Made by a program: the position numbers and the translations under genes. Of a stretch of 64,000 nt of DNA, positions 3,999 through 61,587 are shown piece by piece (position 1 is the first letter of the stretch; every line of letters starts with the position of its first letter). The notes under the pieces are model-generated. The model did not search any database, had not been told where the DNA came from, and saw nothing but the letters and a program-made list of their open reading frames with translations. This stretch comes from Phycisphaerae bacterium. Its GTDB lineage: Bacteria; Planctomycetota; Phycisphaerae; SM23-33. The stretch is taken from assembly GCA_009783465.1 (NCBI GenBank), contig WRDM01000008.1, positions 2,943 through 66,942 on the forward strand, read 5' to 3'.

Positions 3999-4030
3999 GG
4001 GTTTCGTTGCTCGATGGTGAAAACGTGCCG

Positions 4031-4208: not shown

Positions 4209-4240
4209 CGGTTCATTTTTACCCGCGTGCCGCGAACAGC

Positions 4241-9949: not shown

Positions 9950-10230
9950 GGTGTTGTCCTGATTGTCCTGGGTTTCGGTTGACGTTTGCGCGCACGAACG
10001 ATCGCGCCGCCGCCGTTGCGGTTTGCGTAAGTATTCCCTGATTCGGCGGCTACGTCAACCCTCACCAAAACTCTGCGCGCGCGGATTCGTCCGCGGCTTG
10101 TGGCGTGAAAAATTTTTCAAAGATTTTTACCGCCTGTAATCGCCGCGAGTTATGTGTTCGAACAGGCCGATGCCGGCCATGCCTGTGCGCAGTCTCCCCA
10201 CCGCGAAACCCCAGGGTGAGGAGACGACAC

Positions 10231-11874
10231 ATGACCTTCGAGATTGAAAGTTTCCAGGACGACACACTTGACGCGGAGTACATCGACCACCTGATCGACC
10301 GTGTGCTGCCCGAACAGATTCAGCAGACCGGGCGGCTGTGGGAGTACTTCCGCAACCCGATGGTGCCGCTTTCGGGGGCCGTTTCGATGGTGGCCAACGC
10401 GGCCACCAGGCCGTACATGCAGGCCCAGGAGCAGGGCTTGCCCGCCCGCATCACGGGCATCGCCGGCGCCAGCCGCGTGGGCGGCGACCGGAACCGCAAA
10501 GAAGTTGTCGTCGAGAACGACATCGCCTGGCGCGTCCACACGATGGTCGATTTTCTCTTCGGCCAGGAACCCACGATCCGCTCGACGGCCAGCGATCCCG
10601 AATTGGCCGGCGCGATCGAAGCCGTCATCGAGGCCATGCTCCAGGCCAACGGCGGCATGGGATTTTTGCAGGAAATGGCCCTGATGGGCAGCGTGTACGG
10701 CCACGTGGACGTGGCCGTCCGCGTGCCGGATGGATTGGTCCTACCCACCCCGGCCCAGGGATCGTGGGCGCCACGCACTTCTCCACGCCAAACGCGCCGA
10801 GTCAATCCCACCGCCGCCGACGAACCTTCCACCGTCGCGGCGGACGGGCCGGGCACTTCTACTACCTCCGACGCCGCGGGCGTCGATCGAGCGGATGCGG
10901 CAGGATCGGCCGGAGATCGGTCTAGCACGTTCGCACGGGCCGTCGAACTGGCCCGATTGATTACGCTGGAGGCCGTCGAGGCTCCGCGAATCCTGCCCAT
11001 CCTCGATGAGGACGACTACCGCACCATTCGCTACTGGGTGCAGGCCTATCACAAACGCCCGGCGCGGATGAACGTCCGCCGCCGGGGCCTGCTGGGACTG
11101 CGACGCGAAGCCAGTCCCGCCGAGGTCGAAGTCGTCGAAATCATCTCGCCGCATTGGTGGCAGCGGTACGAGGACCGCGTGCTGCTGGCCCAGGGCCCCA
11201 ATCGACTTGGCGTGCTGCCGGTGGTGCATGTGCAGAATCTTTCGGTGCCCAACAGCTACGAGGGGCTTTCGGACGTCGAGCCGCTGATTCCGCTCCAGGA
11301 CGAGTTGAACACGCGGTTGTCGGACCGTGCCAACCGCGTGACGTTCCAGTCGTTCAAGATGTACCTGGGCAAAGGTATCGAGGATTTCCTGGAGCGGCCT
11401 GTCGGGCCGGGACAGATGTGGGCGACGCACAACTTGTCCGCCAGCGTCGAGGAGTTCGGCGACGATCACGGCAGTCCCAGCGAGGATGCGCACATCGCAC
11501 AGGTTCGTTCGGCGATGGATAAGGTTTCGGGTGTGACGCCGGTTGCGGCGGGGCTGATCAACGGCAACGTGGGAAATCTCACGAGCGGCACGGCGTTGAA
11601 GATCGTGCTTGGCGGGCTGCTGACGCGGACGAACCGCAAGCGGCTGACGTACGGCGCGGGGTTGGCGGGCATGGTGGAGTTGGCGTTGCGGTATCTCGAT
11701 TACGCCGGCGTGCTGCCGACGCGCAAGGAGGACCGCAACGTGGAGATTCACTGGCCCAATCCGCTGCCCAACGACGAAAGCGAAGCCCTCCGCAACGCAC
11801 AGATCAAGGCCCAGCTCGGCCTGCCGCCCGACCGCGTCCTGGCCGAATTGGGCTATACGCGGGATAACCGGTAA
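10231..11874 (+). CDS. phage portal protein (SPP1 gp6-like)
   Basis: SD GAGGAG upstream of the ATG at 10231. 'GLSDVEPLIPLQDELNTRLSDRANRV' is a portal-family core. Low-complexity insert at about 10725-10960. Confidence 0.8.
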   Translation: MTFEIESFQDDTLDAEYIDHLIDRVLPEQIQQTGRLWEYFRNPMVPLSGAVSMVANAATRPYMQAQEQGLPARITGIAGASRVGGDRNRKEVVVENDIAWRVHTMVDFLFGQEPTIRSTASDPELAGAIEAVIEAMLQANGGMGFLQEMALMGSVYGHVDVAVRVPDGLVLPTPAQGSWAPRTSPRQTRRVNPTAADEPSTVAADGPGTSTTSDAAGVDRADAAGSAGDRSSTFARAVELARLITLEAVEAPRILPILDEDDYRTIRYWVQAYHKRPARMNVRRRGLLGLRREASPAEVEVVEIISPHWWQRYEDRVLLAQGPNRLGVLPVVHVQNLSVPNSYEGLSDVEPLIPLQDELNTRLSDRANRVTFQSFKMYLGKGIEDFLERPVGPGQMWATHNLSASVEEFGDDHGSPSEDAHIAQVRSAMDKVSGVTPVAAGLINGNVGNLTSGTALKIVLGGLLTRTNRKRLTYGAGLAGMVELALRYLDYAGVLPTRKEDRNVEIHWPNPLPNDESEALRNAQIKAQLGLPPDRVLAELGYTRDNR

Positions 11875-11972
11875 GAGGCTGTAGGCTGAAGGCTGTAGGC
11901 GCAGCACAGGCTTATGCGAGTTTAGACCCAACGAGACATAAGCCTCTCCCTACAGCCTACAGCCCACAGCCT
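11875..11972. repeat. HS-C hairpin element (CTGTAGG heptad arms)
   Basis: GAGGCTGTAGGCTGAAGGCTGTAGGC...GGCTTATG-loop-CATAAGCC...CCTACAGCCTACAGCCCACAGCC. Starts 1 nt after the portal stop codon. Confidence 0.85.
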
Positions 11973-12167
11973 GAAACGGCTCACGTCGCGAAGAACCACA
12001 CGAAGACGACACGCTATGGATGCACCCATCTATGAGGCATTCGGGATTCGGCAACGGCGGCGAGCGCCGCGCGAGGGGGATCGGCACGAACCTCCTGCCG
12101 ACCCGAATGCCTGAACGGAACACAGGCCATGGGCCCGGCGCCCATGACACAACGAAAGGAACTCATC

Positions 12168-12713
12168 ATGGCAGAACCCGTGGAAACTCAGCCGTCCTCT
12201 GACGCGTCCGACAAACTCGTCCCGGTGGGCGAGTCGATCAAGTATCGGCGTCGCGCGCAGCAGGCCGAGGGGCGGCTGACCCAGTTGGAGCAGCAGCTCA
12301 CGCAATTGCAGGGGCAATTGCAGACCCGGTCCGATGAGTTGGCGACGGCCGAGGCGCAGCGCGACGAAGCCCGCCAGCACATGACGCAGATGAACAACCA
12401 GTTCTCCGTCGACCGCCTGCTGATCCAGGCCGGCGTCGTGGATATGGAGGCCGCGAGACTGCTGCTGCAAAATCGCGTGGACCTCGGCGAGGAACTGGAG
12501 TCCACCGACATCGAACAGGCGGTGCAGCAACTGTTGGTGGACAAGCCGTTCCTCCGCGTCGGCAGCGCGTTTCCCCCCAAGAGCGCCAGCGCCAGCCGGG
12601 GCGGCGCGTCGCTGACGGCCCGGATCGCCAACGCCGCCGACCGCGCCGTCGAAAGCGGCGATCGACGCGACGTGGCCGAGTACCTCCGCCTGCGACGTCA
12701 GGCGAATCGTTAG
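12168..12713 (+). CDS. phage scaffolding protein (GP20-like coiled coil)
   Basis: SD AAAGGA upstream of the ATG at 12168. Coiled-coil 'LTQLEQQLTQLQGQLQ'. Sits between portal and capsid genes. C-terminal 'VQQLLVDKPFL'. Confidence 0.65.
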   Translation: MAEPVETQPSSDASDKLVPVGESIKYRRRAQQAEGRLTQLEQQLTQLQGQLQTRSDELATAEAQRDEARQHMTQMNNQFSVDRLLIQAGVVDMEAARLLLQNRVDLGEELESTDIEQAVQQLLVDKPFLRVGSAFPPKSASASRGGASLTARIANAADRAVESGDRRDVAEYLRLRRQANR

Positions 12714-12776
12714 CCCGTCCCCGCGGCCGGCACAGTGCCGACCGCACAAACCCACTGAACATCAAGGAGAAACATT

Positions 12777-13934
12777 ATGCCGTTTACTGGCAAGGCAACC
12801 TATTCCGCCGGCAGCACGCTGCCGGAAATCGCCGATGACGTGTCGGACATCGTCAGCATCGTCAGTCCGTACGAAACCCCGCTGCTGGATCACCTGGGCG
12901 ACCCGGCCCGCGCGGCGTCGAGCACGTATCACGAGTGGCTTGAGGACAGCCTGATTCCCAACATGGACGTGATCAACGACACGGTCATGACGGACCCGGC
13001 CAACAAGACCACGATCACGATGACCAACGGTTCGCGGTTCCGCGTCGGCGACCAGATTCGTCCGCACGGCAGTCTCGAGATTCTGTACGTGACCAACGTG
13101 ACGAACAATGTGATCACCGTCACGCGCGGCTACGGCGCAACGCCCAAGACCGCCATCGCCAACGGGCAGACACTGCACATCATCGGCAACGCCGCCCTGG
13201 AAGGCGACGACGCGCCGCTGACCCGATTCACCAGTCGCGTGCGAAAAGGCAACTGGACGCAGATTTTTGTCTCCACCGTCCGCGTCAGCGGCAGCGACCT
13301 GGCCGTCCGCAAACTGGCCGTCAGCGACGAATTGGATTACCAGAAGCAGGAACGTCTGCGCGAGATGCTCCGCGACCTGGAGAGCACCGTGCTTTGTGGC
13401 CGTTCGCCGCTGATGTCGCCCGAGGGCAGTTCCACCGTCCGCCGAACGATGATGGGCATCCTGCCGTCGATCACCACCAACGTGTTCAAGCCCAGCGTCG
13501 GCGGCTTCCCCAACGACACGGCCCTGACCGAGGCCCAACTGAATCTCGCGATGCGGCGGATCTGGGAAGGTTCCAGCGCCCGCGTGGACACGATCGTCGT
13601 TGGCGGCTTCCAGAAGCGGCGGATCAACGGCTTCATCGCGTCGGGGGCGAGGAATATCAACGGCCGCGAGACGACCTACCGTGATCTGGTGAGCGTGTAC
13701 GAGAGCGATTTCGGCGTGTGCCGGATCATTCTCAGCCGCTCGCTGCCGGCTGACAGCGTGCTGCTGCTGGACTCCAGCCGCGTGAGCGTGATGCCGCTGA
13801 ACGGACGACACTTCCACTACAAACCGCTGGCCACCACTGGCGATTACGAAGCCGGCGAAGTCATCGGCGAGTACACGGTCGAACTGCGTAACGAAATCGC
13901 CCACGGCATCATCACGGGCCTGGATGCGAGCTAA
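12777..13934 (+). CDS. phage major capsid protein (DUF5309/SU10-like)
   Basis: SD AAGGAG. 'VSIVSPYETPLLDHLG...YHEWLEDSL' and 'NWTQIF...VSGS' match the DUF5309 capsid pattern as I recall it. Confidence 0.7.
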   Translation: MPFTGKATYSAGSTLPEIADDVSDIVSIVSPYETPLLDHLGDPARAASSTYHEWLEDSLIPNMDVINDTVMTDPANKTTITMTNGSRFRVGDQIRPHGSLEILYVTNVTNNVITVTRGYGATPKTAIANGQTLHIIGNAALEGDDAPLTRFTSRVRKGNWTQIFVSTVRVSGSDLAVRKLAVSDELDYQKQERLREMLRDLESTVLCGRSPLMSPEGSSTVRRTMMGILPSITTNVFKPSVGGFPNDTALTEAQLNLAMRRIWEGSSARVDTIVVGGFQKRRINGFIASGARNINGRETTYRDLVSVYESDFGVCRIILSRSLPADSVLLLDSSRVSVMPLNGRHFHYKPLATTGDYEAGEVIGEYTVELRNEIAHGIITGLDAS

Positions 13935-13937
13935 CGG

Positions 13938-14094
13938 CAGCCAATAGCCAGTAGCCAATAGCCAATAGGTACGGAACGATATTGGCGAAAGGCAATGAAT
14001 GTGGGAGTTGGCATAAATCTCAAACAGATCACGATCGTGTGATTTTCGACAGGTTTCACCATACCTATTGGCTACTGGCTGCTGGCTACTGGCT
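13938..14094. repeat. HS-A hairpin element, copy 3
   Basis: Arms 13938-13969 and 14061-14094. Loop blocks are the same as in copy 1. Confidence 0.85.
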
Positions 14095-16286: not shown

Positions 16287-16390
16287 GACTGTAGGCTGTA
16301 GGCTGAAGGCTGTAGGCTGTAGGCGCGGGCTTATGAAACATTAGGCCTAATCCTTCATAAGCCTGCCCCCACAGCCCACAGCCCACAGCC
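16287..16390. repeat. HS-C hairpin element
   Basis: 5 CTGTAGG-type units, core GGCGCGGGCTTATG...CATAAGCCTGCC, then CACAGCC x3. Confidence 0.85.
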
Positions 16391-16409
16391 TTACAACCAC
16401 GAGGAACGT

Positions 16410-16780: not shown

Positions 16781-16921
16781 GCGTCTGACGTGGCGAGGGC
16801 GTTTCGCCCTCGCGTCTCGCGGGCATCTTGCCCGCACCGGATAACGAAGTCGATTCGACGTTTTCCACTGACTAGGCCAATGGAGCACACAACGCGGGCG
16901 AGACGCCCGCGTCACGTGACG
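16781..16921. repeat. GC-rich palindromic element (GC-pal, CACGTGACGCGGGCG subtype), intergenic
   Basis: Three small hairpins: GGCGAGGGCG-TTT-CGCCCTCGC, GCGGGCA-TCT-TGCCCGC and GCGGGCG-AGA-CGCCCGC. Terminus CGTCACGTGAC. Confidence 0.75.
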
Positions 16922-20593: not shown

Positions 20594-20805
20594 GCCACAA
20601 GCCACCAGCCACAAGCCACCAGGGCTTGTGGGGCGCGACGGTAAATTTTTCCATCGCGGTGGCGAGAGAGGTCCCGATGCTTCGCGGATACGGCGGTCAA
20701 GGCGGATAACTTACGTTTCGAGTCAGCGAAGCATCGGGACCTCTCTCTCTCGGACAAACGGAACGATTTTCCATTCATGCACCGCAAACCCTTGTCGCTT
20801 GTGGC
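20594..20805. repeat. HS-B hairpin with nested inner hairpin (20664-20748)
   Basis: Arms GCCACAAGCCACCAGCCACAAGCCACCAGGG / CCCTTGTCGCTTGTGGC. Inner hairpin GAGAGAGGTCCCGATGCTTCGC...GCGAAGCATCGGGACCTCTCTC. Confidence 0.8.
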
Positions 20806-20844
20806 TTTGTACCTGCGTGACGAACCACCCGAGAGGAGGGCAGC

Positions 20845-21370: not shown

Positions 21371-21829
21371 ATGACGTTGCTGGGCGGCTGTGCGGCGCCG
21401 ACGGCCACGCTGGATTTGATTGCCGTCGCCCGCGCGGGATTGGCCGACGCGCGGGATGCGCAGCGGCAGTCGCACGAGACCTTGATACGGCAGTTCTCTC
21501 AGCAGCAGGCGGCGCTCGACGCGGCCTTCGACGCCGACGTCCGGCTGGCGGAGGCCGGGGCGATCCGCGACGCGCAGGGCAACCCCGTCGCGCTGGACGG
21601 GCGATGGGTGATCGCCGCCCGCAAAGGCTATGTGGCCGCCCGCGACGCCGTGGCACAACAGGCCGTTGCCGCGCAGGCCGCCCACGCCACGCGGCTGGAC
21701 AACCTCGCCGCCGCCGACGACGCGCTCCACATGGCCTGCACGCTCATCATCGAACAACAGGGCCTGAACATCCGCATGCGGCAGTACCTCCAGAAAGCCA
21801 CAAGCCACAAGCCACTAGCCACAAGGTAA
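21371..21829 (+). CDS. helical lipoprotein
   Basis: Lipobox 'LLGGC'. Start ambiguous (GTG 21359 or ATG 21371). The C-terminal 'KATSHKPLATR' is encoded by a repeat arm. Confidence 0.45.
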   Translation: MTLLGGCAAPTATLDLIAVARAGLADARDAQRQSHETLIRQFSQQQAALDAAFDADVRLAEAGAIRDAQGNPVALDGRWVIAARKGYVAARDAVAQQAVAAQAAHATRLDNLAAADDALHMACTLIIEQQGLNIRMRQYLQKATSHKPLATR

Positions 21830-21947
21830 GGATAGTCTCTGGCTAAAAGACAATGATCGCGGAAATGGCTGTACCTGTTCGATGAACCAGGATCGGCTGA
21901 TGGGTAACAGGTTTTGCCATACCTGGTGGCTAGTGGCTAGTGGCTTT
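21794..21947. repeat. HS-B hairpin
   Basis: Arms AAAGCCACAAGCCACAAGCCACTAGCCACAAGGTAAGG / CCATACCTGGTGGCTAGTGGCTAGTGGCTTT. Confidence 0.85.
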
Positions 21948-22265: not shown

Positions 22266-23504
22266 CTACGGCGTTTCGAGGAGATTCTGCCAGCAGCACT
22301 TGGCCGTGACGTTGTGGCGGCGGCATATGTCCAGCAGTGGGGCGGTGATGGCGGATTGGGCGGTTGGCGGCAGTCGCCAGCTTCCGCCGCGGAAGGTCAG
22401 GCGTTCGGGCGGCTGGGATTCGTGGGCGATGGATTCGTAGAGGGTTCGCATGTGTCGCATCGTGGGCGAGAGCGGGCGGTTTCGCGGCTGGACGATTTTG
22501 GCCGTGGAATATACGACGTGACGGACGCCGACCTCTTTGGCGAACGCGACCAGCCGTTCCAGGTCGTCGAGCGTTTGCGGCCATTCTCGTGACGCGGGCG
22601 TCTCGCCCGCGTTGTGTGTTCCATGGGCTTGGCCGTTGAAAGACGAAAAATCTTTTTCATCGGCTGACGGCGAGGGCTGGAAGCCCTCGCGACACGCGGG
22701 CGAGACGCCCGCGTCACGTTTTTCGGCACGCGGGAACAGCGGGTCGATTCGCAGGACCACGTCCACGCCGGCCTGGCGGAGACGGCGGATGCCTGCAACG
22801 CGGTCTTCAACGCTCGGCGCGCCGGGATCATAGAGTTTCCTGGCCTCGTCACGCCAGAACGCCAGGCTGACCTCGAGGAGAAAACCAGGCCGTGGCGAGT
22901 TGTGTTTGGACGCGTGGAGTTTTCGGAACAGTTCGTCGCAGCCCAACTCCACGGCCAGGCGTGGATTTTTCGTCAGGACGACGACGCTCGTGAATCGGTT
23001 GCGATGGTCGAGGATCCGCCGCAGCGTCAGTCGCGTGTGGCCGGCGTCGGCTTCGAGCGGTTGAAACGCGTCGGTGCTGTTGGACAGATGAATCGGCGCG
23101 GGCGGGACGTTGAAGCGTTCCAGATCGGCGAGGTCCTTATCGAGCGACCGTGCGAAATCCCGCTTCACGCCCGCTTCGGACGGCTCGTATGCGGCGGCGT
23201 AACAGTACTCGCACGCGTGCGAACAGCCGGTGTAGACGTTGACGCAGTAGCGATGCCCGCTGGGAAAATACCGTTGGCTGGCGAACGGACAATACCACTT
23301 GACGACGCGAGGCCGCGTGGGGCAGAGCGTCGGCTTTTTCGATCCGTGCGGCAGAAAATACAACGCCATGGCCGCCTGCTCTCGCGGCGTTTTTTTTTGC
23401 CAGGCCGGCGCGTATTTTTCGTCGATCCGCCGAACCAGCGACAGGCCCTCATCGATGTGGGTTGAGTTGATTGAGAACAGGCTCAATCCGCCTCCTCCGG
23501 CCAC
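22266..23504 (-). CDS. radical SAM protein (COG1533 'DNA repair photolyase'/SplB-like) carrying an in-frame repeat insertion
   Basis: 'NVYTGCSHACEYCYA' is the CxxxCxxC cluster. The central ~44 aa are encoded by the palindromic element 22588..22718. Confidence 0.8.
   Translation of the reverse strand: MAGGGGLSLFSINSTHIDEGLSLVRRIDEKYAPAWQKKTPREQAAMALYFLPHGSKKPTLCPTRPRVVKWYCPFASQRYFPSGHRYCVNVYTGCSHACEYCYAAAYEPSEAGVKRDFARSLDKDLADLERFNVPPAPIHLSNSTDAFQPLEADAGHTRLTLRRILDHRNRFTSVVVLTKNPRLAVELGCDELFRKLHASKHNSPRPGFLLEVSLAFWRDEARKLYDPGAPSVEDRVAGIRRLRQAGVDVVLRIDPLFPRAEKRDAGVSPACREGFQPSPSADEKDFSSFNGQAHGTHNAGETPASREWPQTLDDLERLVAFAKEVGVRHVVYSTAKIVQPRNRPLSPTMRHMRTLYESIAHESQPPERLTFRGGSWRLPPTAQSAITAPLLDICRRHNVTAKCCWQNLLETP
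22588..22718. repeat. GC-pal element inserted in frame in the radical SAM gene
   Basis: Termini CGTGACGCGGGCGTCTCGCCCGCG / CGCGGGCGAGACGCCCGCGTCACG. Internal GGCGAGGGCTGGAAGCCCTCGC hairpin. Confidence 0.8.
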
Positions 23505-25909
23505 CAGTCGCCGCCGGGGGGCATTTCACAGGTGCCGAGCGTTTGGAGGATGCCGCCCATGGCGGCCATGACGCCGACGAGGGCGCCCTCGTAGCCGCAC
23601 GGGTAGCCGTCCCATGTGAAGAATTCCGTTCCGGTGCGATAGCCGCCGGTGAACAGGCCTCGCTCGAAGCCGCGGTCGACGCCGCGGGCGATCGTTTCTG
23701 CCTCGGCGGCCATCCCGTACTTGCGCAGGGCGTAAAGAAAATAGGTAACCCAGAGCGGCGTGAGGCAGCCGTTGACGTAGATGCCGAAACTGTCCCAACT
23801 GTCCTGGCGGCGCGACTCCTGCACCGGCGGAATGTCCGAATGCGGCAGCGGGATCAGGTTGACCGGCAGGCCGTAGGTGAAGTAGTCCAGGCCCATATCC
23901 CGCATGTTGTTCCACAGGCCCGTCAGGGCGCGCTGGGCGGCGGCATCGTCCAGCAGGCCGAAACAGATCGGCAGAGCGGTGAACGCGACGAACGCGTGAT
24001 CGTGCAAGGCGCCGTCCTGGCTGCGCCAGCCGGCCACGAAACCGGTCTCCGGGTTGACCAGGACCTTCTGGAAGGAGGCCTTGATGCCGTCGGCCGCCGC
24101 CCTGGCCGTGGCCGACATCTCCGCGTCGCCGGCCGCCGTCGCCATCGCCTGAACATTTCGCAACCCGCGATACGCCAGGGCGTTCGTATACGCGTCGATG
24201 TGGCCGCTGCTGATGACGTCCCACCCCATGCAACTCCACAGCTTGGTGCCGCTGTTGCCGGTGAGCGTCCGGCAGCACACCAGGCCGGATTCCGTGTCAA
24301 TGTTCGCCAGCACGCGACGCGTCACTTGGAGGATCCACGGCCACATCTCGCCAAGCCAGGTCTTGTCGCGCTGGAGTTGGTACACCCGTCCGGAGGCGAT
24401 CAGCAGGCTGGGGTCGGCGTCGATGTACAGGTCGCGCACGTCGCCGTAGCCGGGCCCGCCCGTCAGCGCCATCTGGATCGTGTAACGCAGCAGATCCGCC
24501 GTGGTCGGCATGCCGGCGGGGGTGTCGGCCAGATGCGCCATGTCGGCTGGCGGATACTGCGACAGGTGGCAGTTGCACGAGACGTTGTTGTTGCTGTAGC
24601 CGCCGAACTCGGCACGGAACGTGTACGCCGACGCGAACGCACGCCGCATGCCCGCGGGAATGTCCCGCTCGGTTTTGCCGGGGGCCAACTTCGGCAGCAG
24701 CGGCGTCACCGCGAAGGACAGGTTGGCCTTGTACGTGCCCGGCGGAATCGTGAATAGGCCGTGCGGGTCCTCCGTGGCGCCGTCCAGGAGAATGCCCGCC
24801 CACGCGATGTTACGATTCCGCCAGGAGTCCACCTTCAGGCGGGCGTTCGTGCCCGACACCAGCACCGTGCCCCGGCCTGGCGCGTTGAGCATCGCCGGCA
24901 GCGACACCAGGCCGCACCGGCCTGTCGCGAACCGCGGCATGCCCAGCACGCCCGTCAGCGTCGTGCAGATGTCCCAGCAGAAGCGGAAGTCGTCCATGTC
25001 GGCCGCGACGATCGTTCGGTCCACGTGGCGGGTGATGTCGATGTCCACGCCCTTTTCGTTGACGGTGAAGCACAGGTCGAGTTTCATGCCAGGCCGGCTG
25101 CCGCTGATGTCGGTGTACACAACGCGGTTGCCCTCGACGCGTACCTGCCCGCCCATGGCCATGGCGGAGTAGTCGTCCTCAACAACGCGGAGCGACGGCC
25201 CGCTGAGCAGATCGCCGTGATAGCGGCTGGAACCGCTCCCGCTGCCGAAATCCCAGATCGTGTTTTTTGTCGTGAGGCTGGCCGTGTTTCCGAGACCGCG
25301 ATCGTCCCAGCCCAGGGCGGTGACCATCGGACGGCGCAGCGAGAAGGCGATGGCGAAGTGTGGGCTTTCGTAAAAGACCTGCGCGCCTTCGACGCGTGCC
25401 TGCATCCCCGGCGCCGCGGGCTTGCCGACGCCCGCGGGCGTCAGCGGCGGCTGATACGGCGGTTCGTAGGCGGGCCTCATCGTGCCGAGAAAATCGACCT
25501 TGTTCAGCGTGTCAAACGGAACGACGCGCTGGCTGGCCCAGAACTCCCCGTGCGACGGGCCGACGGGATACTCGTCGTCGCACACGAGCCGGAAAAGCCG
25601 CCCGCTCTCGGGGCCAGGCAGCGGGAGCTGGTGCGGCTGGGGATTCTCGGTGTCGAAGGCCGGCAGCACGCGGTCGAGGATTGTGACGAATTCCTGCGAC
25701 GATTCGCGAAAGACGTCAAGCCGTACGTGGCGAGGCAGCGCGATGCGGTAGGGCGTGTATCGCGTGCCGACCGGATGAATCACGATGGCATCGACGTCGG
25801 CGTCGCCGGCCATGCGGAAATATCGCACGCAGGCCAACCCGAGCGGCTGGCCTGGCTGAATATCAAACGCGGCGTTGGCGAAGGTCGTGAAGGCGAGCGG
25901 TGTTGTCAT
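23483..25909 (-). CDS. large hypothetical protein, C-terminal (alpha/alpha)6-barrel glycoside-hydrolase-like region (tentative)
   Basis: 808-aa ORF with ordinary composition. The C-terminal half resembles six-hairpin glycosidases by eye only. Confidence 0.55.
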   Translation of the reverse strand: MTTPLAFTTFANAAFDIQPGQPLGLACVRYFRMAGDADVDAIVIHPVGTRYTPYRIALPRHVRLDVFRESSQEFVTILDRVLPAFDTENPQPHQLPLPGPESGRLFRLVCDDEYPVGPSHGEFWASQRVVPFDTLNKVDFLGTMRPAYEPPYQPPLTPAGVGKPAAPGMQARVEGAQVFYESPHFAIAFSLRRPMVTALGWDDRGLGNTASLTTKNTIWDFGSGSGSSRYHGDLLSGPSLRVVEDDYSAMAMGGQVRVEGNRVVYTDISGSRPGMKLDLCFTVNEKGVDIDITRHVDRTIVAADMDDFRFCWDICTTLTGVLGMPRFATGRCGLVSLPAMLNAPGRGTVLVSGTNARLKVDSWRNRNIAWAGILLDGATEDPHGLFTIPPGTYKANLSFAVTPLLPKLAPGKTERDIPAGMRRAFASAYTFRAEFGGYSNNNVSCNCHLSQYPPADMAHLADTPAGMPTTADLLRYTIQMALTGGPGYGDVRDLYIDADPSLLIASGRVYQLQRDKTWLGEMWPWILQVTRRVLANIDTESGLVCCRTLTGNSGTKLWSCMGWDVISSGHIDAYTNALAYRGLRNVQAMATAAGDAEMSATARAAADGIKASFQKVLVNPETGFVAGWRSQDGALHDHAFVAFTALPICFGLLDDAAAQRALTGLWNNMRDMGLDYFTYGLPVNLIPLPHSDIPPVQESRRQDSWDSFGIYVNGCLTPLWVTYFLYALRKYGMAAEAETIARGVDRGFERGLFTGGYRTGTEFFTWDGYPCGYEGALVGVMAAMGGILQTLGTCEMPPGGDWWPEEAD

Positions 25910-25924: not shown

Positions 25925-26105
25925 AACGTAGCACCGGGCGTCCCGCCCGTGAGTCGCATGGGCGTCTCGCCCATGCGACGCCCCAGCATGGGCGTCGTGG
26001 AGTTCGCGTGGGCGGTATAAGGGTTTCGCGTCACAAAATTTCAGCCAGCCGCTGCCACGGGCGAGACGCCCGTGGGACTCATGGGCGGGACGCCCATGCT
26101 ACGTT
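25925..26105. repeat. GC-pal element (GTAGCACGGGCG subtype), intergenic
   Basis: Arms of about 50 nt, each made of two CA(C/T)GGGCG-NNN-CGCCC(G/A)TG mini-palindromes. Termini AACGTAGCA / TGCTACGTT. Confidence 0.8.
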
Positions 26106-29493: not shown

Positions 29494-29806
29494 AGCCACA
29501 AGCCACAAGCCACCAGCCACAAGGTATTCGAAATTCGGTGCTCCCATCGTAGCAAAATTTTCCGCGATTGGCATGCCGAATAGCGAATACTTTCAGGGCC
29601 ATCGCATCGTAAAAGGCCCATTTTTCGGCTGTAGGCTGTGGGCTGTAGGCTGTAGGTTGATTTTCCTTTGCGAAACATCGGTCGCAAAGGCATGTCTCCT
29701 ACAGCCTACAGCCCACAGCCTACAGCCTTTTCGCGAAAAAACGCGGAAATTTAGATGCGATGGCCCTGGCGAATACCTTGTGGCTAGTGGCTGGTGGCTT
29801 GTGGCT
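29494..29806. repeat. four-level nested hairpin (HS-B outer, HS-C inner)
   Basis: Level 1: 29494-29527/29770-29806. Level 2: CAGGGCCATCGCATC/GATGCGATGGCCCTG. Level 3: CTGTAGG arrays 29626-29727. Level 4: CCTTTGCGA..TCGCAAAGG. Confidence 0.85.
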
Positions 29807-31073: not shown

Positions 31074-31295
31074 ACAAGCCACAAGCCACTAGCCACCCGG
31101 CTCCGCCAAAGCTACGTCGGGCAAGCAAGCCACAAGGTATGGCGAAATCTTTTTCGCGCCAGACGATCCCCGTTTCGGCTGGTGGTATCGTTGTTTCCGC
31201 TTTTATTGTCGTTTCGCCCTGTGCGTCCCTTACCTTGTGGCTTGCTTGCCCGACGTAGCCTTGGCGGAGCCGGGTGGCTAGTGGCTTGTGGCTTG
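31074..31295. repeat. HS-B-related hairpin with ~65-nt near-perfect arms
   Basis: Left arm ACAAGCCACAAGCCACTAGCCACCCGGCTCCGCCAAAGCTACGTCGGGCAAGCAAGCCACAAGGTA. The right arm is its reverse complement. Confidence 0.85.
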
Positions 31296-32022: not shown

Positions 32023-34431
32023 ATGCCACAACACTACATCGACGCCATTCTGAAGTATCTCGCCGACCGCAGTTATCGCCCCGTCAAGCCGCGGCAGTTT
32101 GCGAGGCAGCTTGGCATTGACGACAACGAGTACGGCGCGTTTCGCGAGGCCGTCAAGCAGTTGCGTGACGAAGGCCGCGTCGTGCTCGGCGCCAACAACG
32201 CGCTGACGCTGCCGGAAATTTCCTCGCAAATCACGGGGTTTTACAGGCCGAATCCTCGCGGGTTCGGCTTCGTCATCCCGGAGACGCCCAACGCGCACGG
32301 GGATTTGTTCATTCCCGAAGGCTCCGCCGGCACGGCGATGGCGGGGGACCTGGTGGTCGCCCGCGTGTTTCATCAAGGCAAAAAAGCGGGCAAGGCCATG
32401 TATGCCGGCGAGATCATTCAGATCGTTCGTCGCGGGCGGAACCGCTTCGTGGGCACGATGGCGCGGGCCGACGACGGCACGTGGTTCGTCCTGCCCGACG
32501 GGGCGGCGATGACCCAGCCGATCGTCGTTCGCGACGTCTCCACCGCCAGCCCGAAGGCGGGCACGAAAGTCGTCGTCGAAATCACCGAGTATCCCAAGCC
32601 CGGCCGGCTGCCCATCGGCGTCATCGTCGAGCGGCTCGGCGAGGCCGGCGAACTTGACGTGGAAACGCGGGCCGTCATCCGCGCCCATGGTCTGTCGGAC
32701 GAATGGCCCGCCGCCGCGCTGACCGACGCCCGCGACGCCATCGCGGCGTTCGACCGTAGCACGGGCGTCTCGCCCGTGCCGTCTCGCGCCGCAAAGGAAA
32801 CGTCCGCTGTACGGACGGACCGCCACGGGCAAGATGCCCGTGCTACGGGTCGCGAGGACCTCACCGCGATGACCGTCGTCACGATCGATCCGCCCGACGC
32901 GCGGGATTACGACGACGCGATATCGATTCAGCCGGGGCCGGACGGCTCCGTTGTGCTGGGCGTGCACATCGCCGACGTGTCGCATTTCGTCCGCGAAGGC
33001 TCGGCGTTGGATCGCGAAGCCCGGCAGCGCGGCAACAGCACGTACTTCCCGCGACGCGTCGTGCCCATGCTGCCGGAAATTCTCTCCAACGGCGTGTGCA
33101 GTCTCCAGGCCGGCCAACGGCGATTCTGCAAGAGCGTGTTCATCCGTTACGACGACGAGGGCAACGTGCTCGGCACGCGATTCGCCGACAGCGTGATCCG
33201 CTCCGCCGGGAGGCTGACGTACATCGAGGCGCAGGGCATCATCGACCGTGGTGCGGGCATCTCACGTGACGCGGGCATCTTGCCCGCGTTGATCACGCCT
33301 GCGCCGTCAGCCAATGTTGACGGCAAATCCACGCACAACGCGGGCGAGACGCCCGCGTCACGTGAGACGCCACGGTCGGGCGGCTTCGCGCCTGGCGTCG
33401 CTGAACTCGTCCTTGCGATGAACGTGCTGGCGAAAACCATCGAAGCCCGTCGCCGCCGGGCCGGCATGCTGCACCTGGACCTGCCCGAAGTCGAACTGGT
33501 CTTCGACGAACAGGATCACGTCGTCGACGCGACGCCCCGCGACGATTCCTACACGCACACCGTCATCGAAATGTTCATGGTCGAAGCCAACGAAGCCGTC
33601 GCGACCCTGCTCGATCGGCTCGGCAGGCCTTGCGTGCGGCGAATCCACCCTCAGCCCGACGACGCCGGCGCCAAGCAGCTCCGCACGTTCGTGCACGCGT
33701 GCGGCCACAAGCTGCCGGGCAACCTCTCGCGGCGGGACATGCAGGAACTGCTCCGCGCCGTCCGCGGCAAGCCCGAAAGTTACGCGGTGAATCTGGCCCT
33801 GCTCAAAACGTTCGAGCAGGCGGTGTACAGTCCGATGACGGTCGGCCATTTTGCGCTGGCCAGCGAACATTACTGCCATTTCACGAGCCCGATCCGCCGC
33901 TACGCGGACCTGACGGTGCACCGCCTGCTGGGCGAGCACATTCGCGGCACGCTCGAAAGCAGGCCCGGCGAGGACAGGAGCGAACTGGTCCACCTCGGCG
34001 AAAATCTCACCGCGACGGAGCGCCGCAGCAAGGCGGCAGAGGATGAACTGCGCGAGGTGCTGATTCTCGAATTTCTCGCCACCAAAATCGGCGAGGATTT
34101 CGACGGCGTGGTGACGGGCGTGACGAGTTTCGGCCTGTTCGTGCAGTCGATGCGGTTCCTCATCGAGGGCCTGGTCCGGCTGGAGGATCTTGGCGACGAC
34201 TGGTGGGAAGTGGATCCGAAAACCGGCACGGTGGTCGGGGAGCGTACGCGGCGGAAGATACGGCTCGGCGACATGATGCGCGTCCGCATCGCCAGCGTGG
34301 ACATCGCCAAACGCCAACTCAACCTCTCGCCGACACGCGAGCGAAAGAGCGGACGGGTGACGAAAAAGGTGAAAAAACCAAACAAAAACAAGAAAACCTT
34401 CACATCTCGCAAGAAACGTCGAGGGCGGTGA
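32023..34431 (+). CDS. rnr: ribonuclease R with two in-frame repeat insertions
   Basis: 'YRPVKPRQFARQLG' N-terminus, RNB core 'TIDPPDARDYDDAISI' and 'HFALASEHYCHFTSPIRRYADL', S1 domain and a basic tail. Confidence 0.9.
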   Translation: MPQHYIDAILKYLADRSYRPVKPRQFARQLGIDDNEYGAFREAVKQLRDEGRVVLGANNALTLPEISSQITGFYRPNPRGFGFVIPETPNAHGDLFIPEGSAGTAMAGDLVVARVFHQGKKAGKAMYAGEIIQIVRRGRNRFVGTMARADDGTWFVLPDGAAMTQPIVVRDVSTASPKAGTKVVVEITEYPKPGRLPIGVIVERLGEAGELDVETRAVIRAHGLSDEWPAAALTDARDAIAAFDRSTGVSPVPSRAAKETSAVRTDRHGQDARATGREDLTAMTVVTIDPPDARDYDDAISIQPGPDGSVVLGVHIADVSHFVREGSALDREARQRGNSTYFPRRVVPMLPEILSNGVCSLQAGQRRFCKSVFIRYDDEGNVLGTRFADSVIRSAGRLTYIEAQGIIDRGAGISRDAGILPALITPAPSANVDGKSTHNAGETPASRETPRSGGFAPGVAELVLAMNVLAKTIEARRRRAGMLHLDLPEVELVFDEQDHVVDATPRDDSYTHTVIEMFMVEANEAVATLLDRLGRPCVRRIHPQPDDAGAKQLRTFVHACGHKLPGNLSRRDMQELLRAVRGKPESYAVNLALLKTFEQAVYSPMTVGHFALASEHYCHFTSPIRRYADLTVHRLLGEHIRGTLESRPGEDRSELVHLGENLTATERRSKAAEDELREVLILEFLATKIGEDFDGVVTGVTSFGLFVQSMRFLIEGLVRLEDLGDDWWEVDPKTGTVVGERTRRKIRLGDMMRVRIASVDIAKRQLNLSPTRERKSGRVTKKVKKPNKNKKTFTSRKKRRGR
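32756..32846. repeat. GC-pal element (GTAGCACGGGCG subtype) in frame in rnr
   Basis: GTAGCACGGGCGTCTCGCCCGTGC ... CCACGGGCAAGATGCCCGTGCTAC. Confidence 0.8.
33261..33366. repeat. GC-pal element (CACGTGACGCGGGC subtype) in frame in rnr
   Basis: CTCACGTGACGCGGGCATCTTGCCCGCGTT ... AACGCGGGCGAGACGCCCGCGTCACGTGAG. Confidence 0.8.
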
Positions 34432-34435: not shown

Positions 34436-34537
34436 GTGTAAATTTGGCTTGCCTCTTTGCGATGTAAGACGTTGTGGACTACAAAACGTTTGTAGTCCAC
34501 AACGTCTTACGGCGCAAAGAGGCAAGCCAAATTTACG
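34436..34537. repeat. ~100-bp near-perfect palindrome between convergent genes (probable bidirectional terminator)
   Basis: GTGTAAATTTGGCTTGCCTCTTTGCGATGTAAGACGTTGTGGACTACAAAACGTTTGTAGTCCACAACGTCTTACGGCGCAAAGAGGCAAGCCAAATTTACG. Confidence 0.8.
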
Positions 34538-38631: not shown

Positions 38632-38764
38632 CGTTGGTTCGAGGGAACGGTTTTAGTTGACTGGTTAACTGGTTAACTGGTTAACTGGTGGCTTCGCGAA
38701 TGAATTAACTAGTTAACCAGTCAACCAGTTAACTAGTTACCATCATGATTCCCTCGAACCAACG
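38632..38764. repeat. HS-E hairpin with full TTCGAGGGAAC clamp
   Basis: CGTTGGTTCGAGGGAAC, then GACTGGTTAACTGGTTAACTGGTTAACTGG ... TTAACTAGTTAACCAGTCAACCAGTTAACTAGTTA, then TTCCCTCGAACCAACG. Confidence 0.85.
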
Positions 38765-42585: not shown

Positions 42586-42711
42586 AGCCACAAGCCACTA
42601 GCCACAAGCCACCAGGTAAGGAATGACGACGGCGAAAACGAAATTTTTGTTTCGATTCGCGGCAGGTTTTCCATACCTTGTGGCTTGTGGCTAGTGGCTT
42701 GTGGCTAGTGG
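42586..42711. repeat. HS-B hairpin
   Basis: AGCCACAAGCCACTAGCCACAAGCCACCAGGTAAGG ... CCATACCTTGTGGCTTGTGGCTAGTGGCTTGTGGCTAGTGG. Confidence 0.85.
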
Positions 42712-45498: not shown

Positions 45499-45638
45499 CG
45501 TCGCATGGGCGTCCCGCCCATGAGTCCCACGGGCATCTTGCCCGTGGTGGCCTGTCTGGAGTACAAACGGTTCGTCTACAGGCTGGCGTTGCATGGGCGA
45601 GACGCCCATGCGACTCACGGGCAAGATGCCCGTGCTAC
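45499..45638. repeat. GC-pal element (GTAGCACGGGCG subtype), intergenic
   Basis: GCATGGGCGTCCCGCCCATGAGTCCCACGGGCATCTTGCCCGTGG ... GCATGGGCGAGACGCCCATGCGACTCACGGGCAAGATGCCCGTGCTAC. Confidence 0.8.
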
Positions 45639-46666: not shown

Positions 46667-46750
46667 AAACGAGCCACAAGCGACAAGAGCAGGAGAAGCT
46701 TGTCTTTCAAAGCGTTCGCATGGAGCGAGAACATGAAATAAGACAAGACA

Positions 46751-47206
46751 GTAGCGTTGCAGGTGTGTCATTTCGACGTTGAAAACAAATCGAACGGCCT
46801 TCCCGGTCTCACGTGGAAGGGCCGGCGCACAGCCGCGAAGCGGCGTCGTGTATAGCCTAGGGCGAGCCGTACTCGGCGAGCCCTGGGGCAGGCATTGGGG
46901 CAGTTCGTTTATCGTGCCTGACGCCACTGGCCGAGGTCACACCGTCGCGCGAAGGCGGCCTCGAACGGCCCGCACGTTCCCCTGTGATGCCATTCGAAGC
47001 CGTACAGGCCCGCGTGCGCGGCCTCGGCCAGTGGCGTCAGGCACGATGTGGGAACAAAAATAGCTTGTCCCCAGGGCTCGCCGAGTACGGCTCGCCCTGG
47101 GCTATACACGACGCCGCTTCGCGGCTGTGCGCCGGCCCTTCCACGTCAGGCCGGGGAGGCCGCTCGATTTGTTTTCAACGTCGAAATGACACACCAGCAA
47201 CGCTAT
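46751..47206. repeat. ~456-bp multi-level palindrome (I-family termini)
   Basis: Arms of about 140 nt (46751-46890 and 47065-47206). Inner palindrome 46913-47045 (CGTGCCTGACGCCACTGGCCGAGG / CCTCGGCCAGTGGCGTCAGGCACG). Confidence 0.85.
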
Positions 47207-47276
47207 AGTCTTACAAAACGGACGCAGCTTGCGCTTGTCGCTGGTCAGTAACTGCCTAACCAAAGGATTTATAACA

Positions 47277-48452: not shown

Positions 48453-48464
48453 GGCGGGACGCGA

Positions 48465-48583
48465 AAAGACTGTTAGCCTGTTAGGCTATTAGCCTGTTAG
48501 GCGCAGGCGTACGGAATGTTGGGCCAAATCTTTCATAAGCCTGCGCCTAACAGTCTAATAGCCTAACAGGCTAACAGTCTTTT
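48465..48583. repeat. HS-D hairpin between convergent ppiB and marC-family genes
   Basis: AAAGACTGTTAGCCTGTTAGGCTATTAGCCTGTTAGGCGCAGG ... CATAAGCCTGCGCCTAACAGTCTAATAGCCTAACAGGCTAACAGTCTTT. Confidence 0.85.
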
Positions 48584-48584
48584 C

Positions 48585-49166
48585 TCATGCCTCCATCATA
48601 AACGCCTTGACGCCTTCGAGGAACATTTGGACGGCCAGGACGATCAGGAGCATGCCCATGAGGCGTTCGAGGGCTTCGAGGCCTCGCGGGCCCAGGAGGC
48701 GTTGCAGGACGTCCGAGAGCATGAGGATGGCGGCGACGGCCAGCCATGCCAGTCCCAGTGCCGCGGCCACTTGGGGCAGCGGGGCGGTCCGGGAGAGGAT
48801 CAGCAGGGTGGTCATGGCCGAGGGCCCGGCGATCAGCGGGACGGCCAGCGGCACGATGAACGGTTCTCGCGGTGGCGTGCCCGGCTGAACGCTGGGGATC
48901 GGAAACACCATGCGGATCGAGATGACGAACAGGATCACTCCGCCGGAAATGTACAGGGCAGGCGGGGAGATTTTCAGCGTGGCCAGCAGGTACGAGCCGG
49001 TCAGCAGGAACGCCGCCAGCACCGCCAGCGCGATGAGCAACTCCCGCGCCAACACCCGTCGTCGCCGCGGGCGGGGCATCTCGCGCAGCGCGGCGGCGAA
49101 CAGCGGCAGATTCCCCAGCGGGTCCATCACCACAAACAACAAAATGGCAGCCGACGCGAGCGACAT
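48585..49166 (-). CDS. MarC-family (UPF0056) membrane protein
   Basis: 'LFVVMDPLGNLPLF' N-terminal motif. Six hydrophobic segments. Confidence 0.85.
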   Translation of the reverse strand: MSLASAAILLFVVMDPLGNLPLFAAALREMPRPRRRRVLARELLIALAVLAAFLLTGSYLLATLKISPPALYISGGVILFVISIRMVFPIPSVQPGTPPREPFIVPLAVPLIAGPSAMTTLLILSRTAPLPQVAAALGLAWLAVAAILMLSDVLQRLLGPRGLEALERLMGMLLIVLAVQMFLEGVKAFMMEA

Positions 49167-49201: not shown

Positions 49202-49451
49202 GGTTCGAGGGAACAGCTTAGCCACAAGCCACCAGCCACCAGGGTTTTCGTGTGTCCGATGGTGAAAGTGAACATCACGTACGAGAGAGGGGACTCAATG
49301 CTTCGCAGACTCGGGAGGTAATTCACAGGCCTTGCGTTTCGTGTCTGCGAAGCATTGGGACCATTCTCGCCAGCGTGAGGTGTGGTTTTACCGTCGCGCT
49401 GCGAAAGCCCTGGTGGCTAGTGGCTGTTGGCTAGTGGCTTTCGTTCCCTCG
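49202..49451. repeat. HS-B hairpin with TTCGAGGGAAC clamp and nested inner hairpin
   Basis: GGTTCGAGGGAAC, arms 49219-49244 and 49408-49440, then CGTTCCCTCG. Inner hairpin ...CAATGCTTCGCAGAC...GTCTGCGAAGCATTG... Confidence 0.85.
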
Positions 49452-51129: not shown

Positions 51130-51292
51130 GTTTCCATGATCGTCATATTCCGGCGCCACTGGCCACAGGCCCTGCCATTTTGCGTTGCAGATCGTTGTGA
51201 CAGACGAAGCGTTCTGTCGCTCAACAACATTTTACAACGCAAAATGGCAGGGCCTGTGGCCAGTGGCGCCGGAATATGACGATCATGGAAAC
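51130..51292. repeat. H-family hairpin element, copy 2 (longer arms)
   Basis: GTTTCCATGATCGTCATATTCCGGCGCCACTGGCCACAGGCCCTGCCATTTTGCGTTG ... reverse complement. Confidence 0.85.
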
Positions 51293-51881: not shown

Positions 51882-51958
51882 GATTCACCTATGTCGCCGC
51901 ACGGGAAAGGGTTTTACCGAACACCGAAACCTGAACACGAACTTCACGCATTGTAAAA

Positions 51959-53248
51959 ATGACCAACGCGCCCTGCAAACAAAATAGCGACGGACTTTCG
52001 TATCTTCCGCCAGGAGCATTATATCTCCATGTGCCGTTCTGTCTGGCCAAGTGTCGATATTGCGATTTTTATTCCCGTCCCATCCGCGCCGCCGACGCGG
52101 ACCGTTACACTGCCGCCGTTACGCGGCAGTTGCGACGGCTATGTAGCACGGGCGTCTCGCCCGTGAGTCGCATGGGCGTCCCGCCCATGCAAAACCAACC
52201 TGTCGGCGAAACGTGCGACCATGGCCAGATCGCTATGGGCGAGACGCCCGTGCTGCGGACGCCTCTGGCGACGGTGTTCCTCGGCGGCGGCACGCCGACG
52301 GCCCTTGGCGGGGAGCGGCTTGGGGACATTTTTCGCGCCGTCGCGCCGCTGTGCGACGCCCGCACGGAAATCTCCGTCGAAGCCAATCCCGGCGCGTTCG
52401 ACGGGCCGCTGGCGCGTCGGCTGATCGCGGCGGGCGTCAATCGCGTGAATATCGGCGTGCAGTCGTTTCAAGGCGACGAATTGGCCGTGCTGGGCCGTCT
52501 GCACGACGCCGCGGCGGCGAGGCACGCGGTGGCCCTCGCGAGGGACGCGGGGTTCGCGAATGTCGGCATCGACCTCATGTACGGCCTGCCGGGCCAAACG
52601 TTGGCGTCCTGGCGGGATTCGCTGCGGCAGGCGTTCGATCTGGGCGTGGAGCACCTCAGCGGCTACGCGTTGAGCATCGAGCCAGGCACGCCGCTGCACG
52701 CCGATTGGCAGGCCGGCGCGGTCGAGGAGATGGACGAAACCCTGCAACGTGAGATGTACTACGCGATGATCGAGCAGGCCGGCGGGGCGGGGTTGGCACA
52801 CTATGAAATGTCCAATTTCGCCAGGCCCGGTTTTGCGTGCCGACACAATCTGACGTACTGGCACAATTGGCCGTACCTTGGCCTTGGCCCGGCGGCGGCG
52901 AGTTACATGGCCGGCGTGCGTCGCACGAATCGCCCGGACGCCGACGCGTGGGCGACGGCGGTGCTGGCGGATCGGCCCCCGCCCGCGGACGAAGAGCGGC
53001 TGCCGCGGCATCTCCGCATGGCCGAGACGTTGATGCTAGGCCTTCGCCTGACGGCGGGCGTGGATCGGTCCGCCTTCGCGTCGCGTTTTGGCCTGGACGC
53101 ATTGGCCGCCTTCCCGCACTCCCTGCCACGCTACGCCGCGCAAGGCGCACTGCTCATCGAGGCCACGCACATCCGCCTGGCGAGTTGGGCGCTGTTCGGC
53201 GCGGACACGATTTTGGCGGATATCGTCGAGGAGGGGCGGCGAGAGTAG
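51959..53248 (+). CDS. hemW: radical SAM heme chaperone/coproporphyrinogen-oxidase-like protein with in-frame repeat insertion
   Basis: 'LYLHVPFCLAKCRYCDFYS', 'VFLGGGTPT' and 'NIGVQSF'. About 38 extra aa between the cluster and GGGTP are encoded by 52143..52256. Confidence 0.8.
   Translation: MTNAPCKQNSDGLSYLPPGALYLHVPFCLAKCRYCDFYSRPIRAADADRYTAAVTRQLRRLCSTGVSPVSRMGVPPMQNQPVGETCDHGQIAMGETPVLRTPLATVFLGGGTPTALGGERLGDIFRAVAPLCDARTEISVEANPGAFDGPLARRLIAAGVNRVNIGVQSFQGDELAVLGRLHDAAAARHAVALARDAGFANVGIDLMYGLPGQTLASWRDSLRQAFDLGVEHLSGYALSIEPGTPLHADWQAGAVEEMDETLQREMYYAMIEQAGGAGLAHYEMSNFARPGFACRHNLTYWHNWPYLGLGPAAASYMAGVRRTNRPDADAWATAVLADRPPPADEERLPRHLRMAETLMLGLRLTAGVDRSAFASRFGLDALAAFPHSLPRYAAQGALLIEATHIRLASWALFGADTILADIVEEGRRE
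52143..52256. repeat. GC-pal element (GTAGCACGGGCG subtype) in frame in the hemW-like gene
   Basis: GTAGCACGGGCGTCTCGCCCGTGAGTCGCATGGGCGTCCCGCCCATGC ... TATGGGCGAGACGCCCGTGCTGC. Confidence 0.8.
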
Positions 53249-57931: not shown

Positions 57932-57990
57932 AGCTAAGCTCTATTCCTGTTTGCCCTATGGCGGGGCGGGCGGCGTCGGAGAATGGTTTT

Positions 57991-58299
57991 ATGGTGCAAG
58001 ACAAGATACGTATTCGTATGGAAGCCTACGATCACCGGGCGCTGGACGCGTCGGCGAAGGAGATCGTGGATCATGCCGAACGGACGGGCGCTCGTGTCCG
58101 CGGGCCCATCCCGCTGCCGACACGCGTTGAGCGGTACACCGTGCTTCGCAGCCCGCACGTGGATAAGAAGTCCCGCGAGCAGTTCGAGATGCGGACGCAC
58201 AAGCGGGTCATCGACATTTACGAACCGACCGTTCGGACGATCGAGGCCCTCAACCGCCTCGTGGTCCCCGCGGGCGTCTTTATCAAGATCAAGGCCTAG
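57991..58299 (+). CDS. rpsJ: 30S ribosomal protein S10
   Basis: '[14 protein letters not shown]...GPIPLPT' and operon position. Confidence 0.95.
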
Positions 58300-58307
58300 G
58301 TGCAGTC

Positions 58308-59012: not shown

Positions 59013-59150
59013 GGTAAACCGCGGGAATAATCGTTGCCGGATTGTTCTTGCCAGGTTTTCCGGTGTGTAGTACACTCACGGTTTCGCGAAAATTCGCGGA
59101 ATTTGCGGCCGGGCCAGTGGGCCTGGAGATAGTCGAACCAGGATACGAAC

Positions 59151-60070: not shown

Positions 60071-60088
60071 AAGACGACCGAGACAGTC

Positions 60089-60937: not shown

Positions 60938-60951
60938 GAGGAAATTAGAGC

Positions 60952-61233: not shown

Positions 61234-61246
61234 ATGAAGGTGTCTC

Positions 61247-61576: not shown

Positions 61577-61587
61577 CGAAGGACACT

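Follow-up and report, generated by a model that had tools for sequence, protein, structure and literature searches.

The 64,000-nucleotide stretch of DNA analysed here (hereafter the window; contig WRDM01000008.1 of a Phycisphaerae bacterium, assembly GCA_009783465.1) carries on its plus strand, at positions 32023..34431, an apparently intact rnr coding sequence for an RNase R of 802 amino acids, which contains two palindromic repeat elements in its reading frame. Element 1 (32756..32846) corresponds approximately to residues 245-275, in the linker between the CSD2 and RNB domains; element 2 (33247..33369) adds 41 codons and corresponds to residues 409-449. Each is a doublet of repetitive extragenic palindromic (REP) units, and both share a core motif, CGGGC-RWSWY-GCCCG, that occurs 12 times in the window compared to an expectation of 0.02. 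The original prediction, made from the letters of the window, had described an rnr gene with RNB/S1 hallmarks and two palindromic in-frame insertions, and our data confirm both its coordinates and its peptides. All repeat features below are listed without a strand.

Anatomy of the two elements and their host gene

Both long imperfect palindromes consist of two inverted 19-nt hairpins of the type NNNGGGC-N5-GCCCNNN around a spacer, and both are in frame and without stop codons. Element 1 extends from GTAGCACGGGC at 32756 to GCCCGTGCTAC at 32846, and its GTAGCACGGGC termini match exactly on both strands. Its layout is GTAG-CACGGGCGTCTCGCCCGTG-45 nt-CACGGGCAAGATGCCCGTG-CTAC, in which the left hairpin (32760..32778) is read as TGVSPV and the right hairpin (32824..32842) as HGQDARAT; the arms at 32754-32781 and 32821-32848 are 89% complementary. 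The encoded peptide RSTGVSPVPSRAAKETSAVRTDRHGQDARAT (STGVSPV...HGQDARAT) is the one originally reported, together with the correct coordinates, but the right arm had been misread: it reads ...AAGATGCCCGTGCTAC rather than ...CGCCCGTGCTAC. Element 2 is a doublet of the CGTGA-CGCGGGC stem variant with the layout CACGTGA-CGCGGGCATCTTGCCCGCG-50 nt-CGCGGGCGAGACGCCCGCG-TCACGTG. Its left hairpin (33270..33288) is read as AGILPA and its right hairpin (33339..33357) as AGETPAS within the peptide ISRDAGILPALITPAPSANVDGKSTHNAGETPASRET, and its arms (33256-33309 and 33318-33371, 54 nt each) are 80% complementary. The extent of element 2 is given by the net extra DNA relative to the uninserted orthologue at locus L002, which comprises 33247-33369, i.e. 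41 codons.

All differences between the stems of the two elements are compensatory (CAC..GTG to CGC..GCG), and a single cluster at locus L123 of another Phycisphaerae lineage contains both types of stem. Elements 1 and 2, which had been described as different, are stem variants of one REP superfamily and not two unrelated elements. Both are predicted to fold into very stable RNA structures (-67 kcal/mol, z -7.2 against shuffled sequences, for element 1; -90 kcal/mol, z -11.5, for element 2).

A search for a known RNA family yielded only sub-threshold Rfam matches to plant miRNA precursors, which are generic long hairpins. An internal promoter or terminator was rejected as well: no promoter-like sites were found, and the two terminator-like sites agree with the 2.5 expected from shuffles.

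The product of the host gene matches the Pfam families OB_RNB, CSD2, RNB (1.4e-96) and S1, its best solved relatives are the RNase R structures of Bacillus subtilis (8cdu, 4.5e-113) and Escherichia coli (5xgu), and it displays the complete RNase R architecture HTH-CSD1-CSD2-RNB-S1 with a basic tail, an intact Asp cluster and an RNase R fold. The product is identical to the entry 'MAG: RNB domain-containing ribonuclease [Phycisphaerae bacterium]' at the NCBI (MAG: metagenome-assembled genome). This generic name results from a score just below the cut-off of the RNase R equivalog profile TIGR02063 (592.1 bits against 597.85), and the shortfall in turn arises because the match falls into three stretches, interrupted by the two inserts.

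Two insertions, a sub-threshold profile score and a non-committal database name might suggest that rnr is a decaying pseudogene, which is still open by chance. We regard this as extremely improbable. The frame of 802 codons is free of stops, and every column without variation among 120 orthologues is retained, including the catalytic Asp cluster D289/D295/D297/D298. The ratio of nonsynonymous to synonymous substitution rates (dN/dS) against the relative at locus L001 is 0.18 over 733 core codons, and the G+C content at third codon positions (0.81) is typical for the genes of the window. The fold is predicted confidently, and the split into three stretches accounts for the TIGR02063 shortfall. 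The host gene rnr is under purifying selection. RNase R is not known to be generally essential, which qualifies the original description of rnr as an essential-type gene.

A further palindrome (34438-34536), with 48-nt arms that are 96% complementary, immediately follows the stop codon of rnr and separates this gene from a convergent one for a PEP-CTERM protein. No other close copy is present in the window, and the palindrome could serve as a bidirectional terminator or represent some other element.

Insertion sites in RNase R and their recurrence

Comparison with orthologues shows both segments to be insertions of repeat elements, by which the frame was preserved. The alignments to solved RNase R structures are interrupted precisely at both segments, and neither insert is present in these structures: residues 236-247 of B. 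subtilis RNase R correspond to residues 239-276 of the query, and residues 377-398 to residues 406-465. About 110 of the 120 Phycisphaerae orthologues have nothing at either position. The prediction that alignment and structural mapping would place the inserts in linkers or loops was thus borne out by orthologues, solved structures and model alike. Conserved, non-palindromic segments had been named as the finding that would speak against an insertion, but the inserts are palindromic and are not conserved in RNase R.

The structure predicted by AlphaFold2 from the 120-sequence alignment has a mean predicted local distance difference test score (pLDDT) of 86.8 and a predicted template modelling score of 0.80, and it matches 5xgu and 7dcy with template modelling scores of 0.87-0.88 normalised by target length. 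In this model insert 1 follows helix 230-247 and precedes the first RNB strand, i.e. it occupies the CSD2-RNB linker, and insert 2 lies in a helix-loop-helix between the RNB-domain helices 400-414 and 457-479. Predicted secondary-structure elements and invariant columns are left uninterrupted by both inserts. The pLDDT falls below 50 only at residues 256-273, 416-448 and 790-802, the last being the basic C-terminal tail, and both insert loops are predicted to be disordered. RNase R of this bacterium would accordingly carry both loops, as judged from the open reading frame (ORF); if they are translated, junction-spanning peptides such as FDRSTGVSPVPSR are expected.

The two inserts differ in age. 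At locus L002 (73% identity at the DNA level) both sites are empty, whereas at L001 (82.5% identity) site A, which is occupied by element 1 in the window, is empty and site B holds a diverged copy of insert 2, which has its junctions at the same places and whose spacer is homologous. Insert 2 is common to the window lineage and L001 and therefore predates their split, and insert 1 is younger. The peptide of insert 2 drifts neutrally: its dN/dS against L001 is 1.18 over 39 alignable codons, compared to 0.18 in the core.

This bears on the possibility that the inserts have been co-opted, either as stable hairpins in the rnr mRNA that regulate its translation or decay in a feedback, or as disordered loops that modulate the movement of the cold-shock domains or substrate access. 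The idea has its attractions: the predicted RNA structures are very stable, RNase R together with polynucleotide phosphorylase (PNPase) targets and degrades REP-containing mRNAs (PMC12320835), several lineages bear inserts in the same three loops, and in the window insert 2 has kept perfect hairpins in spite of its age. However, in L001 each of these hairpins already has one mismatch, the insert peptide behaves neutrally, and about 110 of the 120 orthologues manage without an insert. Two other, unrelated genes of the window carry the same elements, and the element density in rnr is within expectation. Co-option is therefore very unlikely in our opinion.

Inserts derived from REP units are present in seven of the 120 orthologues, ten inserts in total, and are confined to three loops. 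Site A (after residue 244) is occupied in P0001, P0008 and P0014, site B (after residue 408) in P0001 and P0002, which hold a common copy, and in P0013, P0071 and P0072, and site C (after residue 648) in P0008 and P0014. Other lineages gained their inserts independently: for P0008, P0014, P0013, P0071 and P0072, the independent inserts were confirmed at the DNA level for four (L123, L124, L125 and L126), where tagged hairpins (gtag-CACGGGCATCTTGCCCGTG and similar, with gtag or gtgg) are found. The insertion point in L125 is five codons downstream of that in the window. The rnr gene of P0007 lacks inserts and yet shares 92-94% DNA identity with those of P0008 and P0014, each of which has two; filled and empty alleles at such a level of identity indicate that the gain, or loss, is recent.

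The two independent insertions in one gene, to which the original prediction had drawn attention, are not statistically striking: with four intragenic copies distributed over 51 genes the probability that some gene receives at least two is about 0.15. Ten inserts in 120 orthologues likewise correspond approximately to the intragenic density of the window as a whole. We therefore rejected rnr as a preferred REP target, and it is probably not special among host genes. A more elaborate proposal holds that the recurrent capture of REPs in the same three loops goes beyond mere tolerance, either because the hairpins in the rnr message tie RNase R level, in a feedback, to the cell's capacity for unwinding or degrading REP-structured RNA or because microhomology makes rnr a preferred landing site; we attach little likelihood to it.

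The repeat family in the window and beyond

Seven elements are present in the 64 kb, four of them within genes. Besides the two in rnr (E4 and E5), these are E1 (16794..16918), an intergenic copy of the CGCGGGC subfamily; E2 (22586..22720), in frame within a radical-SAM ORF (22266-23525, minus strand); E3 (25927..26105), intergenic, with four hairpins and GTAG...CTAC ends; E6 (45504..45638), outside genes and upstream of an ATP-grasp gene, likewise with four hairpins; and E7 (52143..52256), in frame within a HemW-like radical-SAM gene (51935-53248, plus strand; heme chaperone), in which it interrupts the radical-SAM domain match. The window contains 23 hairpin units with the 19-nt spacing NNNGGGC-N5-GCCCNNN and 7-8 paired bases, and 18 of the 23 have all three outer pairs. 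The beginning of the S10 ribosomal protein operon (57934-63948; S10, L3, L4, L2, S19, L22, S3, L16, S17, L14) appeared free of REP elements.

Two subfamilies can be distinguished. On the one hand, GTAG-CACGGGC is found on both strands of element 1, and E3, E6 and E7 likewise bear the GTAG tag; the spacers of this GTAG-CAYGGGC subfamily do not align. On the other hand, element 2, E1 and E2 carry CGTGA-CGCGGGC, and no GTAG tag was found in element 2. Within this CGCGGGC subfamily homology extends to the spacers of E1, E2, E5 and the L001 copy, and therefore the whole doublet is the repeated unit.

In a crude tally of the reading frames of the hairpin units GVSPV/GETPV appears 17 times, HGQDA ten times and RASRP twice. 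The intragenic elements E2 and E7 encode GVSPA...AGETPAS and GVSPV..GVPPM...GETPV. The earlier statement that GVSPV, HGRDA and GETPA motifs recur in all intragenic copies is thus only roughly right; HGRDA itself is absent from the window, element 1 having HGQDA instead. Only 18 of the 42 combinations of element and frame are free of stops, from which it follows that roughly one random insertion in seven keeps a gene open. The four intragenic copies of the window are all open, and this openness is a survivorship filter. Together with the independent inserts in the same loops, these numbers support the selection for tolerated sites that had been suggested for rnr.

The exact 23-mer GTAGCACGGGC-RWSWY-GCCCGTG is present in at least 120 stretches of public genome contigs. 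Most of these belong to Phycisphaerae, Tepidisphaerales, Planctomycetes and Opitutaceae, i.e. mostly to bacteria of the Planctomycetes-Verrucomicrobia-Chlamydiae (PVC) superphylum, and some to MAGs of other phyla. The latter are labelled Anaerolineales, Terriglobia, Syntrophobacterales, Competibacteraceae, Bacillota, Fimbriimonadales, Ignavibacteria and Bacteroidota, and the loci outside the main groups include L004, L008, L009, L018, L037, L040, L052 and L070, among others. Their presence there could reflect either horizontal spread or contamination during binning.

Several features of the window are of a different kind. A phage-like head cluster extends from 10042 to ~22000 and comprises an SPP1-type portal (10042-11871), a scaffold protein (12036-12710) and an SU10-type major capsid protein (12759-13931), followed by several ORFs without a Pfam match; element E1 lies between two genes of this cluster, which may be a prophage or resemble a gene-transfer agent. 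Palindromes with arms of short tandem repeats (GGCTGTAGG..., AGCCACAAGCCAC..., AGCCAATAGCCA..., TTAACTGGTTAAC...), many for 64 kb, are unrelated to the REP hairpins and lie at 11851-11997, 16300-16391 and 29627-29727; at 20607-20806, 21802-21946, 42586-42706 and 49219-49433; at 13939-14094; and at 38654-38737. There are also large inverted repeats with arms of 61-144 nt that are 82-97% complementary (46745-47212, 31075-31295, 51130-51292, 48453-48594 and 4003-4236).

Origin of the inserts and relation to known systems

The reading that we consider highly probable is that two REP doublets, resembling REPINs (REP doublets forming hairpins) and belonging to the GTAG-tagged REP superfamily, with GTAG-19 of Opitutus terrae as their closest known relative, have inserted into rnr and were kept at tolerant sites. 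Each doublet, with two inverted 19-nt hairpins and a spacer of 45-50 nt, would be transcribed and translated together with rnr, which would add a loop of ~30 residues to the CSD2-RNB linker and a loop of 41 residues between two RNB helices. The inserts would persist because these positions tolerate extra residues, and selection would purge copies that disrupt structured regions of the protein, introduce a stop or shift the frame. The insert peptides themselves would be without function, the older one drifting neutrally. The elements may have been spread by a REP-associated tyrosine transposase (RAYT), an enzyme of the IS200/IS605-like HUH tyrosine type. RAYT genes are often flanked by GTAG REPs (PMC3733652), and mobilisation of GTAG REPs by RAYTs is a hypothesis in the literature (PMC3733652, PMC3116915).

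Several observations weigh against this reading. No RAYT (Y1_Tnp) was detected among the ~50 ORFs of the window that were scanned with Pfam, nor in 893 kb of related loci, the latter in a crude motif scan, which is a weak test. The tag of the second subfamily is GTGA instead of GTAG, and GTGA is not among the degenerate tags listed for GTAG REPs (PMC3733652). Element 1 measures 91 nt from GTAG to CTAC, which is no multiple of three, and the net gain is only 25-26 codons; its insertion was therefore no clean addition, and its boundaries are approximate (91 nt against 75-78 nt), given that the nearest relative among 5.8 billion proteins searched has 82% identity. Finally, the filled alleles of P0008 and P0014 replace 11 nt of the native loop at site A and ~27-30 nt at site C, as seen in comparison with P0007 (locus L127 against L126 and L123). 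Such a replacement of native bases fits a simple cut-and-paste mechanism poorly.

An alternative route would be recombination or gene conversion at microhomologies in native loops that resemble REP ends, rather than transposition. Under this mechanism one would expect the same sites to be used repeatedly and native bases, here 11 and ~27-30, to be replaced. The native site C reads CGCGGCACG, which resembles the REP 5' end CGTGGCACGGGC, and the native site B in L125 contains ACGGGCGG. Moreover, both rnr elements of the window start directly after TCGAC (TTCGAC/CGTAG at 32750-32760 and ATCGAC/CGTGG at 33242-33252, the slash marking the junction), and the independent insert at site B of L124 starts after TTGAT (TTGAT/CGTAG). 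However, the cases are few, and the similarity is short and G+C-rich and could be due to chance. No common flank is shared among the other copies of the window, and loops that tolerate insertions will receive repeated insertions under any mechanism. We consider this route unlikely, though worth bearing in mind, and retain the insertion of mobile REP doublets at tolerant sites as the preferred explanation.

The assignment to the GTAG superfamily, which was defined by Di Nocera et al. (2013, BMC Genomics 14:522; PMC3733652) and is present in the PVC superphylum, is supported by short stems (7-8 paired bases in the window, compared to ~6-9 bp for the superfamily), by the tag on element 1 and by many dispersed copies that are often inverted dimers. 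Among the genomes considered there, O. terrae has the most intragenic GTAG-REP copies, and its GTAG-19 inserts encode GTGVPPV, GTGVSPV, HGRDARAT and HGQDARAT (Additional file 3), to which the window peptide STGVSPV...HGQDARAT corresponds; the GTAG-19 list includes dimers, such as the one in uvrA (GTGVPPVDSGSASDDHGRDARAT), and genes with two insertions (PMC3733652). GTAG-19 and our elements are both short G+C-rich stem-loops with a 5' GTAG or GTGG tag, form inverted dimers that can fold into a larger hairpin, and lie in frame inside genes of PVC hosts, where they encode the same peptides, dimers contributing 20-30 residues or more. This match was drawn from the encoded peptides and from the tag. 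There are also differences: the host is a member of the Phycisphaerae (Planctomycetota) rather than of the Verrucomicrobia, RNase R is absent from the host genes listed in PMC3733652, and element 2 stands apart in its stem variant (CGCGGGC), its GTGA tag and a spacer that is conserved in part.

Three other systems invite comparison. REPINs (Bertels and Rainey 2011, PMC3116915) likewise consist of two inverted REPs with a short spacer that form one long hairpin, occur in dispersed copies and, as in our second subfamily, have the whole doublet including its spacer as the repeated unit. In contrast to classical REPINs, which are overwhelmingly extragenic, four of the seven window copies are intragenic, and no RAYT was found in the window. 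Miniature inverted-repeat transposable elements of bacteria (MITEs; Correia/NEMIS, RUP, Nezha and ERIC) are also small, non-coding, dispersed and palindromic and fold into stable RNA, but have terminal inverted repeats like those of insertion sequences and target-site duplications, neither of which is seen here: native bases are replaced instead of duplicated, and no direct duplication flanks either element. Rickettsia palindromic elements (RPEs; Ogata et al. 2000 and 2002, Claverie and Ogata 2003, cited in PMC3733652) provide a parallel in terms of lying as palindromic repeats in frame within genes that are apparently still functional. According to these studies, the segments that they encode are reportedly located on protein surfaces. 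RPEs nevertheless belong to another sequence family and phylum and encode other peptides; they are A+T-rich, 100-150 bp long and come from obligate intracellular bacteria, and the likeness is restricted to the way of working.

Our data reveal no new kind of element or mechanism; REPs of this family lying in frame within genes have already been described from a related phylum. The class of translated repeat peptides that had been suspected from the window is not new, since the same peptides are listed for GTAG-19 of O. terrae (PMC3733652, Additional file 3). What is added is an extension of the intragenic habit of GTAG-type REPs from Verrucomicrobia and Proteobacteria to Phycisphaerae. Because the inserts break up profile matches, a genuine RNase R ends up just below the NCBI naming cut-off, and genes in other REP-rich genomes may be under-annotated in the same way. 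The three loops of RNase R, which accept 25-60 extra, presumably disordered residues and are represented by filled and empty alleles among near-identical genes, amount to a natural experiment that could be of use for engineering the RNase R protein and for estimating when REPs were active.

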